Positions 73-14,736 of a stretch of DNA of 16,594 nt are shown here, in pieces (positions within the stretch are counted from its first letter, which is position 1; each line of letters starts with the position of its first letter). A model generated the notes under the pieces. It was given only the letters and a program-made list of their open reading frames with translations, ran no database searches and was not told the DNA's origin. The position numbers were made by a program, and so were the translations under genes. Location: positions 1 through 16,594 of the forward strand of contig JASEGQ010000011.1 of NCBI GenBank assembly GCA_030017875.1, written 5' to 3'. Origin of the DNA: Candidatus Aenigmatarchaeota archaeon. GTDB taxonomy: Archaea; Aenigmatarchaeota; Aenigmatarchaeia; CG10238-14; SCSR01.

Positions 73-1197
73 TTAAGCTCTATACGTTATCGTTAAGGTC
101 ACATCTCTCAAGTCATAGAATGCATTCGGCTCTGTGGAGAAGGATATAAGATTTGTCCCTATGTTCAGAGGAACTTCTGTTCTGTTAAAAGTTTTAGAGA
201 AAAATGCTAGAGGAGGGATGTCTCTAAAGAAAGTCTTATCATTTATTTTGATTGTTATGTCACCTAATGGAATGGTATAGTTTTTGATTCTAAAAGTTAA
301 AACTCCTGATCTAAAGTTTGTAACTTCGTTTACGCCTAGCTCAAAGACAAAGTCCTTATAAAATACTCCCTGGTAGCCTATACCAAATTTTGCGCTTCTA
401 ACCTTATAGACAGTGTTCATCCAAAACTTCCAACCAGGTAAATCAGCGCTTATGGTAATCGTGTTCGATCTCTTGATTTTTTCTTTTTCTAACCGAATAT
501 CAATACTTCCAGGTCCTGCTTTTTGGTTATATATGACCTCTCCATTAAACTCTATTATGAGATTTCCTGCACTGTTCGTATCGTCTATAACCAGAGAGAT
601 GTAGCCTCCTGTCACCATGTTGAACTTCTCCTCTGCCAAACTCTCATGAACCAAATTTATCGGATAGTTTGCAAAGTACCCTCTCACAACTTCAACGTTT
701 TCTTTCGAAGCCAACGTTTCTGAGCCAACTGCGTAGCTAATTGAGAAGTCGTTGAAAAAAATCGATCTAGATGCCTCAACGACCAAAGCTTTTGTTGCAT
801 TAATATTAACAGGAATAGTTTTTCTTCCTCCCGAAAAAGTTATAACTATACTTCCAGAATAAACCTTTTCTATTACGGTGGAAGGAACAGAGATAAAAAC
901 TTTAACAGTTTCTATACCAGAGACATCAAAGTTATTTTTGTCAAAGTATATCCAATTTTTAATTTCTCCAGAGGCAGAGAGGCTAACGTTTGTTGCTGTG
1001 CCGTTCAGAGTAAGGGTAAAGCTTTTGGAAGAGCCGATCTGAATTGCTGAAGAGATAGACTCAGGATAGACTTCGAGCTTGGCAGCTGGTAAGGTAGACC
1101 AAGCGACCATCATGATTATTATCATTATCAAGCCAGCTAGCAAAACAAATGCGAACTCGTCTATTCTCGGCACTTGGCCTTTTTTCAATAAAAGCAC
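73..1197 (-). CDS. hypothetical membrane-anchored or secreted protein (one N-terminal TM helix, beta-rich polar ectodomain)
   Basis: 374-codon ORF with GTG start at 1197 and TAA stop. The N-terminal hydrophobic segment FAFVLLAGLIMIIIMMVAW is followed by a long Ser/Thr/Asn-rich region. I recognise no named motif. Confidence 0.55.
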   Translation of the reverse strand: MLLLKKGQVPRIDEFAFVLLAGLIMIIIMMVAWSTLPAAKLEVYPESISSAIQIGSSKSFTLTLNGTATNVSLSASGEIKNWIYFDKNNFDVSGIETVKVFISVPSTVIEKVYSGSIVITFSGGRKTIPVNINATKALVVEASRSIFFNDFSISYAVGSETLASKENVEVVRGYFANYPINLVHESLAEEKFNMVTGGYISLVIDDTNSAGNLIIEFNGEVIYNQKAGPGSIDIRLEKEKIKRSNTITISADLPGWKFWMNTVYKVRSAKFGIGYQGVFYKDFVFELGVNEVTNFRSGVLTFRIKNYTIPLGDITIKINDKTFFRDIPPLAFFSKTFNRTEVPLNIGTNLISFSTEPNAFYDLRDVTLTITYRA

Positions 1198-1233: not shown

Positions 1234-1911
1234 ATGAGAATACTAGAAGCTAACTATGAAAAGAAGTTTGCAAAGGTCATGGTGGAGAACAGACTAGACC
1301 TATGGCATCTCGCAAATATACTTGAACCAGGAGACCTAATCACATCAAAAACCCTGAGAACAGTTTTTATCGAAAGATGGGGGGAGAGAGAAAAGGTTGA
1401 AAGAAAGCTTGTTACCCTAACAATTCAACTCGAGAAAATGGTGTTCCAGGATGAAACAAACAACCTTAGGCTCACAGGAAGGATAGTTGAGGCACCAAAG
1501 GAAATCACAATAGGAAGCTACCATACCATAGAGGCCAGAATTCATAGTATTTTATACATTGAGAAAAAGGAATGGAAGCAAGAACACATAGAAAGACTTA
1601 AAAGGGCTGCAAAAGGTATAGAAAGAATAATAAAACCGACTGTGATAGACGAGTTCTTCGTTCACCTGAATAAGAACGATGGCTTGGCAGTTTATGGCTT
1701 TGAGCAAGTTAGAAGTGCTGCCTTGATTGGTGCTGTGAAAGTTGTTTTGATACCTATAGAGAGAATAAAAGACAAGCGAGTCGATGAACTTATAAAAGCA
1801 GTTGAAGAAAAGAGAGGGAAAATAAAGTTTGTAGCAAGGAAAGAGCCTTCTGGAGAAAAGTTTTGCAGAGCTTATGATTTCGCAGCAATACTTAGGTTTC
1901 CCATTTCTTAG
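1234..1911 (+). CDS. Pelota/Dom34-like ribosome-rescue factor lacking the central (eRF1_2-like) domain
   Basis: The N-terminal part (MRILE..ENRLDLWHLANILEPGDLI..IGSYHTIEA) matches the Pelota Sm-like domain 1. The C-terminal part (DGLAVYGFEQVRSAALIGAVKVVLI ... FAAILRFPI) matches the eRF1_3-like domain 3. The protein is only 225 aa against about 340-350 for archaeal Pelota. ATG start, TAG stop. Confidence 0.7.
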   Translation: MRILEANYEKKFAKVMVENRLDLWHLANILEPGDLITSKTLRTVFIERWGEREKVERKLVTLTIQLEKMVFQDETNNLRLTGRIVEAPKEITIGSYHTIEARIHSILYIEKKEWKQEHIERLKRAAKGIERIIKPTVIDEFFVHLNKNDGLAVYGFEQVRSAALIGAVKVVLIPIERIKDKRVDELIKAVEEKRGKIKFVARKEPSGEKFCRAYDFAAILRFPIS

Positions 1912-2044: not shown

Positions 2045-2620
2045 TTACGGAGTCAAACGTTTCAGTTCGTAATAGGTTACGTCTCCCTCTTTATCACAAA
2101 CAGCCCACCACATTGTCGCTCTTATATTATGCGCAAGTCTTACAGCTCTTGACATTTCTGGCAAGGAAAAGGCTGATTCTTCTGCAACAGCTTGGACGAT
2201 GGCCATTGTGTGTTCATGCGGAGCTTTAGGACCTCTCTTTAATTTTACACCCCTTTCATAAATTCTAAAGTGGGCACCAAATTTGTAGCCAGTTTTAACC
2301 AGATAGCCTCTATTTCTTAAATCGCGGTAAACAATAAACTGAGGATGGAACTGATTAACATTTTTACTTCCAATTTCCATTAACTTCTGAAAATCAATTT
2401 TTTTCTTCTTCCCATTTTCTTTAACATAAGCTTTCAACTTTCCTTTTTCGATTAAATACGCGGCTTCGATCAATTCTAGTTCTAATCTATCAGGATTTTC
2501 TTCTGGTTGAGGCTTTCCATATCCAGATTCATCGTATAGAGAAACAGCCTCAGGGCTCCAGATTATCACCCTATTCTCTAGCAGTTCACCTTCCCAAACT
2601 TTTTCTGCCACATCTATCAA
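2045..2620 (-). CDS. endA: tRNA-splicing endonuclease subunit (EndA family)
   Basis: 191 aa, TTG start, TAA stop. The C-terminal catalytic domain aligns without gaps to M. jannaschii EndA as I recall it: YRDLRNRGYLVKTGYKFGAHFRIYERG (Tyr present), PHEHTMAIV (His present), RLAHNIRATMWWAVCDKEGDVTYY (Ala where the catalytic Lys is expected). Confidence 0.9.
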   Translation of the reverse strand: MIDVAEKVWEGELLENRVIIWSPEAVSLYDESGYGKPQPEENPDRLELELIEAAYLIEKGKLKAYVKENGKKKKIDFQKLMEIGSKNVNQFHPQFIVYRDLRNRGYLVKTGYKFGAHFRIYERGVKLKRGPKAPHEHTMAIVQAVAEESAFSLPEMSRAVRLAHNIRATMWWAVCDKEGDVTYYELKRLTP

Positions 2621-6172: not shown

Positions 6173-7747
6173 TTATTTTTCTAACCCTGTTTTTATTTCA
6201 ACCCTTCTCTTTATCATATCCTCAAGCCTACTTAAAATAGTTTTTTGATCTTTTCTGGTTAGTTTAGCTAGTGATTCGGAAACTACTGGAATATACCTCT
6301 CAAATATTTGTTTTCTTAAGAACTTTTCTCTTGCTCTTCTTTTCTGGCTGATATATTTTGCAAGTTTTCTTCCTGCGTCTTGAAGGGCAAGCTTGATCTC
6401 TCTAACTATTTCAGGATAGTTTGCGATCGCTTGCTTTCCTTCAGTAGTAAAAGGAACCCACACAGAAGCAAAATGAACAAGAATCACTAAAGGCCCTATG
6501 GGCAAAGCTCCTGCAGGTTGCTGTAGGCCATATCTTCTCCAATCCACCTCTGTAATAGCTTCAGTTATCGCACAATCGCTCTGATGGTATAACAAAGGAA
6601 CCTTGTTTGCAAATCTAAATATCTTAACAGTTTCATTTAGCGGAAGGTTTCCTCCATAAGCTAAGCCAACTGAGATTTGAAAAGGATTTCCTCTATAAAC
6701 TGTTGGAGGCCTGGAAATCGCAACAAAATGTTCTGCTTCTATCTCTTTTTTCAAGCCTTCTGTGATTAAACTCTCGGTAAGAGGGGAAAGACAATCAGTT
6801 GGTGGAGCAATTAGTTTAACCATTTGCATTGCTTTGTGCAGTCTGTCAGATTCCTCTGTGTTTAGATCTTGAGGCTTTCTACTATGCTCAAGCTTTGCTA
6901 GCTTGCATACCTGCTCTGCAGAGCTTCTCCCCACACGACAGAATTCTGTTGTTAAGAAACTAATGAGATTTTTTGCTTTTGTGGCTGAAAGCATTCTTCT
7001 TAAAATTCCAAGCTCAATCCCATGTGGATGAGGCTTGATTTCTTTTGGCTGTTTTGGTAGTTCATTGGTTACTCTTTTGAACTCGGCCTTACCGCTCGGT
7101 CCATCAAAAAAAATATTAGCATGAGGATTTGCTATTGCAGTCTGCTTGATGTATTCGAGAATTGACTGGCCCTTTTCTACGTACCTTCCTTCAACTTCCA
7201 TCTCAACTTTTACGCCGTGCCATTTCTCAGGATTTTTCTCCTTTTTATGGGAAATTACATTAGGCTCATTCTTCGTCACATCTATCATCAACTCGAAAAT
7301 ATGCTTGTCTTTTCCAGTACTTGTTGTTACACTTACAGGTTTTCCTGTTGTTAGCTGGGAGTACAAAACTGCGCCGTGAATCCCAACCCCCATTATGCCG
7401 CGGGTCTGTCTCAATTTGTGGAACTTGCTTCCGAAAAGAAGCTTCCCAAAAGCAAAAGGGACTTTTGATTCGATTATTCCTGGCCCATTGTCTTCTATCA
7501 CAACTTTAAATCTGTTTACACCAACCTGCTTTAGTGAGATGAATATTTCTGGCAAAATCCCTGCATCCTGTGTTGCATCTAAGCTATTATCTAGCCCTTC
7601 CTTGACAACTGTTACTAGAGACTTGGTCGGATTTTCGTACCCAAGAAAGTGCTTATTTTTATTTCGTCTTGCCTATTGCAAGATTTCGAAAAATTCAGCT
7701 ATACTTATCTCTTTCATGTCTTTTGCCAATTCTTCTGCTGTAATCAT
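6173..7747 (-). CDS. top6B: DNA topoisomerase VI subunit B, two exons (7747..7685 joined to 7660..6173), 516 aa after removal of a 24-nt BHB intron
   Basis: The ORF track starts at TTG 7555, downstream of the GHKL N-box EGLDNSLDA (7600..7574), so the real gene must begin further upstream. An ATG at 7747 preceded by GGAGGTGA opens the same frame as MITAEELAKDMKEISIAEFFE. That frame then hits TAG at 7675..7673. Deleting 7684..7661 keeps the frame and gives [34 protein letters not shown]. Confidence 0.85.
7661..7684 (-). other. 24-nt bulge-helix-bulge intron within the top6B coding sequence (contains the in-frame TAG)
   Basis: RNA reads UUU UUCG AA|A UCUUGC AAUAG GCAAGA CGAA AU|A AAA. The outer helix is UUU/AAA. 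The central helix UUCG (7690..7687) pairs with CGAA (7666..7663) at 4 of 4. Two 3-nt bulges lie on opposite strands. The inner helix has 6 bp and the loop AAUAG holds the UAG. This geometry matches the tRNA introns in this window. Confidence 0.75.
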
Positions 7748-10996: not shown

Positions 10997-11058
10997 ATTT
11001 TTAAGTTTTATTGCAAAATATTTATTAAGCCCTGGTAGCTCAGCTGGTAGAGCAACTG

Positions 11059-11071
11059 TCGAACGGTTGAG
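11059..11071 (+). other. tRNA-Thr intron 1 (13 nt, between positions 30 and 31)
   Basis: Intron sequence is UCGAACGGUUGAG. The central helix pairs exon C25 A26 A27 C28 with intron GUUG (11066..11069) at 4 of 4. The 5' bulge is UG|U and the 3' bulge is AG|A. The outer helix pairs G22 A23 G24 with C32 U33 U34. The intron interior is only a small loop. Confidence 0.7.
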
Positions 11072-11078
11072 ACTTGTA

Positions 11079-11109
11079 ACTGATCATCTGAAGAAGATTA
11101 TGGCAATTG
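11079..11109 (+). other. tRNA-Thr intron 2 (31 nt, canonical 37/38 position)
   Basis: Exon U33 U34 G35 pairs with intron CAA (11104..11106), and C32 faces U, so the central helix is 3 of 4. The 5' bulge is UA|A and the 3' bulge is UG|A. The inner helix is short and wobble-rich. This is a relaxed BHB stacked on the anticodon stem. Confidence 0.65.
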
Positions 11110-11387
11110 ATCAGTAGGTCGCGAGTTCGAGTCTCGCCCAGGGCTTAGTATTATCAGAATTAACAACATGTTTTATTCTGTTATGTAGTACCGGTAAGAG
11201 TAGGCCTGGCTGAATTGCTGAAATGTATTGTGGATGTCAACTTATGCGTCCTAACAACGCATAAAATTTGTTCACAATAAGCTTGCGAAAATGTCTACGC
11301 TGTTATATTGTGAGGTTAAAACCTAGGGAAAATGTCATAAGTTCCATTAAACGTAAGCTTTAAACAGATAAACTACATTCTTATGGG

Positions 11388-13771: not shown

Positions 13772-14480
13772 CTATCTACCAAACTTTCTCTGAACAGAAT
13801 TATACCATCTAATTGCTTTTATTAATTCTTTCTTAGAAAAATCGGGCCAAAGTGTTTTGGTAACGTAAAATTCTGCGTAGGATGCTTGCCACAGCATAAA
13901 GTTTGATAATCTGCTAAACCCTCCAGTCCTAATTAGCAAGTCTATTGGCAACGGAACTAGCAAATTTTTTTCTATATCTTTTTCTGTTATTTCTATCTTA
14001 CCTGTCCTTATAATCTTCTCAGCTATTTTTCTCATGGTCTCAGTTAGCTCAAACTTGCTCCCATAAGCTACCAAGAAGTTGATAACATGTTTTTGATATT
14101 TGGCAGTTTTCTGCATTATTTTGCCCATCAGCCTAACAAGCTTTGGAGGCAATCGTTTCAAATCTCCAACAAATCTAACCTTTATTTCATATTTTTCCAG
14201 AATTGGCTTCTTTTTCTCCCAAGATTCTAACATTTCATAAGCTAGTTTGAATATTTCGTTCAATTCTCTTTTCGGTCTGTTCAGATTTTCTGTTGACAGC
14301 ACATAAACAGATATCTGGGGTATACCAAGCTCTAGGCACCAGTCTAAAAATTTGTCAAATACTTTACATCCTTGTCTATGACCATACCATACTGGCATTC
14401 CTCTTTTAAGGGCCCATCTTCTGTCTACGGGCTAAAGGCTTTCCGTCTATGATGATGCCCAAATGATTCGGAACTTTCAT
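13772..14480 (-). CDS. uppS: cis-prenyltransferase (undecaprenyl/dehydrodolichyl diphosphate synthase family), two exons (14480..14441 joined to 14424..13772), 230 aa after removal of a 16-nt BHB intron
   Basis: The track ORF (208 aa) starts at [10 protein letters not shown] and lacks the family's N-terminal substrate-binding motif. Upstream, in a different frame, ATG 14480 encodes [13 protein letters not shown]. Removing 14440..14425 fuses the frames into [32 protein letters not shown], the conserved DGNRRWA...GH..G signature. Total length is 693 nt, or 231 codons including the stop. Confidence 0.85.
14425..14440 (-). other. 16-nt bulge-helix-bulge intron within the uppS coding sequence (frame-correcting)
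   Basis: RNA reads ACGG AA|A GC CUUUA GC CCGU AG|A. The central helix ACGG (14446..14443) pairs with CCGU (14430..14427) at 4 of 4. The 5' bulge is AA|A and the 3' bulge is AG|A. The inner helix is GC/GC with loop CUUUA. The outer helix is weak, with only one G-C pair. Confidence 0.75.
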
Positions 14481-14520: not shown

Positions 14521-14557
14521 TAGTATTTACAAACTCAAAATTAAGTTTGGGGTTGTA

Positions 14558-14588
14558 TATAACGTGGGACGTTAAGCACGAAGTTGTA
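14558..14588 (+). other. tRNA-Trp 5' intervening sequence (31 nt; exact register ambiguous within the GTTGTA direct repeat)
   Basis: This stretch must be removed to join the acceptor stem plus U8 A9 to the D stem AGAU. It is flanked by the direct repeat GTTGTA (14552..14557 and 14583..14588). It contains the hairpin UAACG-UGGGA-CGUUA. In no allowed register could I fold a convincing BHB by hand. Confidence 0.45.
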
Positions 14589-14618
14589 AGATAGCTTGGT
14601 TAGTCTATCAGGCTCCAG

Positions 14619-14655
14619 AGATATTTTGGAGCATTGATACCAGATGAAAGAAGAA
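14619..14655 (+). other. tRNA-Trp anticodon-loop intervening sequence (37 nt, 37/38)
   Basis: In the canonical register the central helix is CUCC/GAAG at 3 of 4 (one C-A mismatch), with 5' bulge AG|A and 3' bulge AA|A. A competing perfect pairing exists between CUCCA (14613..14617) and intron UGGAG (14627..14631). Confidence 0.55.
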
Positions 14656-14736
14656 ACCTGAAAACGAGGGTTCAAATCCCTCCAACCCCATCCAGGCTTT
14701 TATTCATTGCAATGTTGATAGGATGTATCGGATAGT

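Follow-up and report, generated by a model that had tools for sequence, protein, structure and literature searches.

How can a gene remain usable when the catalytic motif of its product is divided between two reading frames? This question is raised by uppS, the essential lipid-carrier gene for a cis-prenyltransferase (UPP synthase), on the minus strand of contig JASEGQ010000011.1 (assembly GCA_030017875.1), a stretch of 16,594 nucleotides (nt) from a Candidatus Aenigmarchaeota archaeon that was analyzed at its full length and is called the window hereafter. The frame that starts at ATG 14480 gives 24 amino acids (aa) and then a TAA stop, and in the long frame downstream the sole start available to a gene caller is ATG 14398, from which 208 aa are read. 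In our opinion a bulge-helix-bulge (BHB) intron of the uppS pre-mRNA occupies the 16 nt at 14440..14425, a reading to which we give a probability of about 0.82. Its support comes from an insertion site shared by 33 distinct sequences, from covariation, from purifying selection, and from the presence on the same contig of the tRNA-intron endonuclease EndA, of two interrupted tRNA genes, and of a second putative BHB intron.

The initial annotation, made from the sequence alone, had described a uppS signature split over two frames, with a 19-nt gap where DGNRRW reappears once 14440..14425 is removed, and an unspliced mRNA that encodes only a 24-aa peptide. All these sequence statements were reproduced, the last one by reading the ATG 14480 frame. 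Specifically, 19 nt lie between the codons GGA (Gly) and AGA (Arg), and deletion of 14440..14425 (AGCCTTTAGCCCGTAG) leaves GAC GGA AAC AGA AGA TGG within an open reading frame (ORF) of 230 aa. Among the 16-nt deletion registers, the one shifted by +1 alone yields an identical mRNA, and every other register alters the motif. The profile comparison between the two possible products, already foreseen in the annotation, was run with Pfam PF01255: the 230-aa spliced product matched positions 1–219 of 219 (231.8 bits, E = 9e-69), whereas the 208-aa ORF matched only 17–219 (204.3 bits), leaving out profile positions 1–16 and the Asp of DGN. The match becomes full-length only after the 16 nt are taken out, and their removal restores a cis-prenyltransferase/UPP synthase with its N-terminal DGN(R/G)RW motif. 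The spliced protein also aligns to solved UPP synthases with no gap across the junction (IIMDGNNRFA, E = 1.8e-48), and no other lesion is visible along the 230 aa. A further argument of the annotation, that a length which is not a multiple of three rules out an in-frame insertion, stands for the window but not as a general signature, given that eight homologous inserts are multiples of three (with stops).

The structure put forward in the annotation (helix ACGG/CCGU, two bulges, GC/GC stem, and loop CUUUA) came back from an unconstrained minimum-free-energy fold of 14462..14410, which pairs ACGG (14446-14443) with CCGU (14430-14427) and recovers the bulge AAA and the inner GC/GC with its CUUUA loop, the 3' side AGACAGAA being left unpaired. 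Two 3-nt bulges, AAA and AGA, thus lie on opposite strands around a 4-bp helix, and cuts at AA/A and AG/A give GGA AAC AGA and restore DGNRRW. A distal exon-exon helix of 9 bp closes the motif across an internal loop. As the core is directly adjoined by the G14447:C14423 pair only, the motif of the window is of the relaxed HBh' type and not the strict hBHBh', a definition that reportedly goes back to Marck and Grosjean in 2003 and in which flanking helices of at least 2 bp adjoin both bulges; here the inner one has 2 bp and the outer one a G:C pair followed by an A.A mismatch.

In the mechanism that we propose, the uppS transcript would fold so that exonic ACGG pairs with intronic CCGU and presents the bulges AAA and AGA on opposite strands, the short inner GC/GC hairpin and the exon-exon pairing holding the 4-bp helix in place. 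The archaeal splicing endonuclease (EndA, encoded on the contig) would cut after the second base of each bulge, and an RNA ligase would join ...GGA A to AC AGA..., restoring both the Asn codon of the catalytic DGNRRW and the 230-aa frame. The ligase of archaeal tRNA splicing is RtcB, and no RtcB gene was found within the 16.6-kb window. We infer the cutting, the joining and the assignment of the enzymes from the sequence. The coordinates of all the features are collected in Table 1.

Table 1. Features of the window related to the putative introns, the endonuclease and the interrupted tRNA genes (coordinates on the 16,594-nt stretch).
Feature	Coordinates	Strand	Description	Basis
EndA, tRNA-intron endonuclease	2045..2620	minus	191 aa; presumed intron-cutting enzyme	PF02778 + PF01974
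top6B gene	6173..7747	minus	exon 1 7747-7685, putative intron 7684-7661, exon 2 7660-6173	
top6B putative BHB intron	7661..7684	minus	24 nt, AUCUUGCAAUAGGCAAGACGAAAU, in-frame UAG	
tRNA gene	11029..11145	plus	~44-nt insertion in anticodon-arm region	Rfam
uppS exon 2	13772..14424	minus	from AC of Asn codon, then RRWALKRG..., stop codon included	
uppS distal exon-exon helix	14410..14460 (span)	minus	two arms, GGGC.UCAUC 14460-14451 and GAUGGGCCC 14418-14410	minimum-free-energy fold
uppS bulge 2	14424..14426	minus	AG/A, predicted 3' splice site after 14425	
uppS putative BHB intron	14425..14440	minus	16 nt, AGCCUUUAGCCCGUAG	fold; homologous inserts at the site in 32 other distinct sequences
uppS central helix, 3' strand	14427..14430	minus	CCGU, intron-internal	fold and covariation
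uppS inner hairpin	14431..14439	minus	GC, loop CUUUA, GC (2 bp)	minimum-free-energy fold
uppS bulge 1	14440..14442	minus	AA/A, predicted 5' splice site after 14441	
uppS exon 1	14441..14480	minus	ATG 14480 to first base of Asn codon (A of AAC)	gapless alignment to UPP synthases
uppS central helix, 5' strand	14443..14446	minus	4 bp, ACGG (Asp and Gly codons)	fold and covariation
tRNA gene (anticodon loop CCA)	14549..14690	plus	~37-nt insertion in anticodon region	Rfam

One Asn codon interrupted in many uppS genes

When the 120 best UppS protein relatives were compared for called length, two of them were called as 208 aa, namely the protein of the window itself and P0118 (73% identical). At the matching position the gene of the latter carries a 21-nt insert (AGATCTAATCAGGTCCCGTAT), in frame but with a TAA, whose motif has the helix ACGG/CCGU, bulges AAA and AUA, and an inner stem GAUC(U)/(A)GGUC. 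A scan of species-representative genomes with a loose pattern gave mostly chance matches in GC-rich bacteria, and among the matches listed only two were real, one from a Ca. Micrarchaeota metagenome-assembled genome (MAG; L010) and one from a Ca. Aenigmatarchaeota MAG (L028), and in both the insert has 20 nt. A pattern built on the exons only and blind to the intron (H-x-[AG]-[IV]-I-x-D-G-N ... R-R-W-[AG], the Asn codon being allowed to contain 13–43 free bases) was checked on 123 loci, from which it selected the five true uppS loci and no others; it matched the window once, with no match in 200 shuffles of it. Applied to a metagenome collection, it retrieved 34 loci, 33 of them uppS; the other one (L129) was a GC-rich chance match and was excluded.

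In total, inserts that range from 15 to 41 nt break up the Asn codon of 33 distinct uppS sequences from Aenigmatarchaeota-like and Micrarchaeota-like lineages. Among these inserts, 25 shift the frame, eight are multiples of three with an in-frame stop, and none can be read through cleanly. Virtual splicing turned every locus that was not cut by a contig end into an intact ORF of 228–238 aa, except L125/L139. In these two, the spliced uppS frame is open upstream, with 530 aa to the first stop, which points to a fusion in frame with the gene upstream, or just to the lack of a stop codon in between.

A chimeric join or a local misassembly could in principle have created the 16 nt, a possibility that applies to MAG contigs in general, and such an error had been named in the initial annotation as fatal to its own proposal. 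The insert is, however, reproduced in independent assemblies. The identical 16 nt are found in L001, a separate Logan assembly made from SRR23186779, which agrees with the window at 99.86% over 2871 nt and has its four mismatches elsewhere; the 21-nt insert of P0118 is identical in a JGI assembly (L002) and a Logan assembly (L003), and the 33 distinct inserts at this one site come from many projects. We consider the chance of an artifact negligible.

To follow pairing through the insert-bearing set, alignment columns were anchored on the exon-intron boundaries as defined by the coding sequence, and were not fitted to any fold (6 outer, 4 helix, and 3 bulge positions, the first 4 and last 4 inner ones, then 4 helix, 3 bulge, and 6 outer). 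In this layout 82.1% of the cells were paired, vs. 66.2 ± 1.4 in shuffles (0/500 reached the observed value) and 31–45% when the partner columns were slid. Changes on both sides were seen in 6 of the 14 pairs, and the covariation score was again reached by none of 500 shuffles. Where the central helix contains the last base of the Asp codon, the pair is C:G in 20 sequences and U:A in eight, and no sequence is unpaired there. Codon and helix are coupled, GAC going with ACGG/CCGU and GAT with AUGG/CCAU, and even the near-identical pair L152/L153 differs in this manner (GAU/CCAU vs. GAC/CCGU). All four inner-helix pairs change on both sides, and one outer-helix pair is G:C in 10 sequences and U:A in 10. 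Most Micrarchaeota-like homologs have an outer helix of at least 4 bp, and within this clade, with its 4-bp outer helix, the covariation of this one pair couples synonymous Pro codons (CCG/CCU) with Arg codons (CGG/AGG). One strand of the uppS helix is built from codons, and hence the structure covaries with synonymous codon choice. There are departures from the scheme: in seven sequences the helix has a G.A at its inner end, in five a mismatch at its outer end, and in a few long inserts the hairpin is set a few bases off the bulge. Overall it is the structure and not the sequence that is conserved among the homologs, and the concern expressed in the annotation, that orthologs might lack BHB-preserving covariation, did not materialize.

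These comparisons also bear on the possibility that a 16-bp insertion simply inactivated uppS, leaving a gene that is decaying or dispensable. It is true that the unspliced reading stops after 24 codons and that the BHB of the window is minimal, and a recent inactivation of this copy is conceivable since the comparison partners are distant and dS is saturated. However, decay would have to account for one codon interrupted in 33 distinct sequences from two phylum-level lineages, with a common RNA architecture and covariation with the exons, and for a downstream ORF that is intact in all complete copies. The dN/dS values between intron-bearing pairs are 0.03–0.11, that of the window against the intronless L158 is about 0.075, and the 230-aa product gives a full Pfam match free of other lesions. 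From these ratios the interrupted uppS genes appear to be under purifying selection, and we regard a pseudogene as improbable. L155 and L157 have 97% identical proteins in spite of a 1-nt indel between their inserts, which indicates that the insert is not translated.

The ribosome might also bypass the insert by programmed frameshifting or hopping, with no splicing of the RNA. In bacteriophage T4 gene 60, where ribosomes hop, a stem-loop follows a GGA codon, and the window likewise has a stem-loop after GGA. However, the 15–41 nt inserts span all residues modulo three and carry stops in several frames, and no single frameshift restores DGNRRW. In addition, what is conserved is a 4-bp helix with two 3-nt bulges, that is, the signature recognized by EndA. 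Translational hopping in particular was rejected on the grounds that the insert lacks flanking codons that match as take-off and landing sites; the sole repeated codon, GAC, would delete Gly-Asn and is absent from L002. A bypass is in our view very improbable.

The distribution of the insert among relatives is patchy. In L158 and L159, the nearest relatives of the window (81–82% identical), the insert is missing and the sequence is GACGG[CA]A/ATAGAAGATGG, i.e., exactly the predicted junction. The gene order of L158 is as in the window, with PCMT upstream of uppS and GGR downstream. Between PCMT and uppS, where the window has an interrupted tRNA gene, L158 contains an ORF (308-844, minus strand) with a faint LAGLIDADG_3 match. 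In a neighbor-joining ordering of the Aenigmatarchaeota-like clade, intron-bearing sequences appear singly or in pairs scattered among intronless ones, and L002 has an intronless relative at 86% identity. In the Micrarchaeota-like clade all sampled members have the insert, in a sample biased by the search. The scattered pattern resembles the gain and loss described for the cbf5 intron (PMC2738675).

Strength of the window motif and the presumed endonuclease

Several results weigh against an intron in the window. Its uppS copy has the weakest BHB of the whole set (a 2-bp inner helix and 1 bp of outer helix adjoining the core), and the fold energy of the site does not stand out (z = -1.58). Scanning the window for generic BHB motifs did not discriminate (244 matches vs. 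183 ± 13 in shuffles), this motif being frequent by chance in such AT-rich DNA. The view of the genome is that of one 16.6-kb contig, and a second intact uppS may exist elsewhere. An exact look-up of 10 spliced UppS sequences in a protein collection found none of them, a result that is uninformative. Finally, in the EndA of the contig the catalytic Tyr and His are retained, but Ala replaces the catalytic Lys (K156 in M. jannaschii), as it does in 120 out of the 120 closest relatives of this protein (Aenigmatarchaeota).

Fold energies are not significant at other sites either (L002, z = -0.07; L125, -0.88; L028, -0.17; top6B site, -1.67), and thresholds of the generic scan that catch the top6B intron miss the one in uppS. 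For a random 16-mer placed at the uppS site, p is about 0.002 for obtaining both the helix and an inner stem of 2 bp. Taken together, the z-score, the shuffle scan, and this p-value make the motif of a single sequence suggestive and not decisive. The fold alone is no more than chance would give; it is the comparative evidence that is decisive.

As for the endonuclease, Ala in place of the canonical Lys means that the active enzyme may differ from the textbook EndA, or may be a paralog encoded elsewhere. The best match among solved structures is the EndA of M. jannaschii (alpha4), and the protein of the window is a single unit, closest to the alpha4 type. It has a conserved basic insert, KLKRGPKAPHEH, directly before the catalytic His (the 6-aa KRGPKA in all relatives inspected), a position at which the epsilon2 enzyme of ARMAN-2 carries an insert as well, and the relatives inspected have a 4-aa insert in the N-terminal domain too. 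A lysine of the basic insert may replace the missing one, or else a paralog may act as the catalytic subunit. In DPANN, alpha4-type EndAs that bear an additional loop are frequent and go together with many disrupted tRNA genes (PMC5829648).

EndA might also cut the BHB with no efficient rejoining, in which case the motif would serve mRNA decay or act as a switch in regulation, or else the true product would be the 208-aa ORF. There is a precedent in yeast, where TSEN cleaves mRNAs that are left unligated (PMC10485636), and the weakness of the window motif fits such a scheme. Yet the 208-aa ORF has neither the Asp of DGN nor the first 16 profile positions, and exon 1 and the exact frame relation across the junction are conserved in 33/33 sequences, something to be expected only if the joined product matters. 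Cleavage alone is therefore a rather unlikely outcome, slightly less so than a bypass, and we favor cleavage followed by ligation.

A second putative intron in top6B and other features of the contig

The gene for topoisomerase VI subunit B, top6B, appears to contain another mRNA intron. Unspliced, its N-terminus reads AEFFE-ILQ*ARR-NKNKHFLGY, the insert splitting AEFFE/KNKHFLGY, and removal of 7684..7661 leaves AEFFEKNKHFLGY and a 516-aa Top6B that gains the HATPase_c domain and aligns gaplessly with Top6B of M. mazei. The motif is a textbook hBHBh', with outer UUU/AAA, helix UUCG/CGAA, bulges AA/A and AU/A, and inner UCUUGC/GCAAGA. L162, a 72%-identical Top6B ortholog, has a 24-nt insert with identical site, helix, and bulges, and its inner stem (UCCUA/UAGGA) still pairs. 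Another Top6B, P0240 (486 aa), was considered as a truncated call and rejected, as it is intronless with a miscalled start.

Both putative mRNA introns lie near the 5' end of their genes (codon 14 in uppS, codon 22 in top6B) and inside highly conserved motifs. The two sites (14424-14446 and 7660-7690) also have in common A-rich bulges, an exon 1 that ends in GAA, and an exon 2 that starts with A. One Top6B relative, P0169, carries the intein-type Pfam domain PF14890, an indication that top6B in this group hosts more than one kind of intervening element.

ARAGORN found no tRNA in the window, and Rfam detected two tRNA genes, both interrupted. A strict BHB scanner assigned no clean motif to either of the two insertions. 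The tRNA gene at 11029-11145 has a duplicated ACUG motif, from which it may contain more than one intron. In the one at 14549-14690, two acceptor-stem mismatches of the Rfam alignment vanish if the 5' strand is taken as GGGGUUG at 14549-14555, which pairs with CAACCCC; this match points to a probable second insertion, of 31 nt, after acceptor position 7 (with a flanking GUUGUA repeat). Elsewhere on the contig, a Pelota/eRF1-like ORF of 225 aa (1234-1911, plus strand) matches eRF1 domains 1 and 3, not the central domain 2, and is followed by a 70-aa ORF with no matches (1940-2152).

Novelty and comparison with known mRNA introns

In the literature covered, archaeal mRNA splicing is documented for no genes other than cbf5 and HVO_1309 (PMC10485636, PMC2738675), the former with its pre-mRNA BHB intron in Crenarchaeota (Watanabe 2002; Yoshinari 2006; Yokobori 2009, PMC2738675) and the latter with an mRNA BHB in Haloferax volcanii (Schwarz 2020, PMC7714728; reviewed in PMC10485636). 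As late as 2025, a paper (PMC12397907) referred to the cbf5 work alone. We have found no literature on BHB introns in uppS or top6B, nor on mRNA introns of DPANN, in a search with most subscription journals outside its coverage, so that a prior description is possible. The mechanism is already known; the novelty lies in the host genes, in the lineage, in how widely the insert is conserved, and in the variant of the enzyme. With the present reading, uppS would be the third host gene of archaeal mRNA splicing and top6B the fourth, and this would be the first such case in DPANN.

Putative BHB introns are found in two of about 17 genes of the contig (uppS and top6B). We are inclined to think, with less confidence than for the uppS intron itself, that pre-mRNA splicing by the tRNA machinery is routine in Aenigmatarchaeota and related DPANN, with BHB mini-introns of 15–41 nt kept for a long time in the catalytic motifs of several essential genes, recurrent precise loss, and a lineage-specific EndA in which the Lys is replaced and a basic insert is present. 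Such genes are truncated or missed by gene callers, with calls of 208 aa for uppS and of 460 aa for top6B, and consequently metabolic reconstructions of DPANN MAGs would under-call essential functions. The comparative series is unusually deep, with 33 distinct alleles and an exon-intron covariation that involves synonymous codons, and it is a natural set on which the substrate rules of splicing endonucleases from DPANN can be tested. It also has a bearing on the way in which protein-free introns spread into coding sequence and are kept there.

The closest known system is cbf5. The uppS insertion has the attributes of a cbf5-type intron, since it lies inside the coding sequence, breaks the frame, and separates two exons that together give the orthologous protein. 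Both are short introns with a BHB or relaxed BHB, of a size within the range of tRNA introns (11–175 nt; PMC2738675), both leave a broken frame in which gene callers miss the intron or take it for a frameshift, and both are distributed patchily, being precisely present or absent when close relatives are compared. They differ in their host genes (uppS and top6B here) and in their hosts, cbf5 introns being crenarchaeal and those of uppS belonging to DPANN (Aenigmatarchaeota and the Micrarchaeota-like clade). The hosts of the cbf5 intron have a crenarchaeal (alpha-beta)2 EndA with the CSL loop, whereas the EndA of the window is a single unit most like alpha4, and the splicing of cbf5 has been shown experimentally, whereas that of uppS is deduced from comparative data.

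In HVO_1309, as we propose for uppS, an archaeal mRNA is cut at a BHB by the splicing endonuclease, and its spliced product has been seen in RNA-seq. That case concerns a single species and gene and came from a biochemical and transcriptomic screen, whereas the uppS insertion is backed by wide comparative conservation and breaks up the catalytic motif of an essential enzyme. Among the pre-tRNA introns of archaea, those at non-canonical positions (HBh'/hBH) have the same 4-bp helix, two 3-nt bulges, symmetric cleavage, and size range, and interrupted tRNA genes are found on the contig of the window as well; the difference is that the RNA hosting the uppS insertion is an mRNA. More distant is the splicing of XBP1/HAC1 (IRE1 with RtcB or Trl1), which, like the process envisaged for uppS, is a protein-only and spliceosome-independent excision of a short mRNA intron (26 nt in XBP1, with ligation by RtcB in metazoa) that changes the reading frame, but in which the nuclease is IRE1, the sites are paired stem-loops instead of a BHB, and splicing is regulated by stress.

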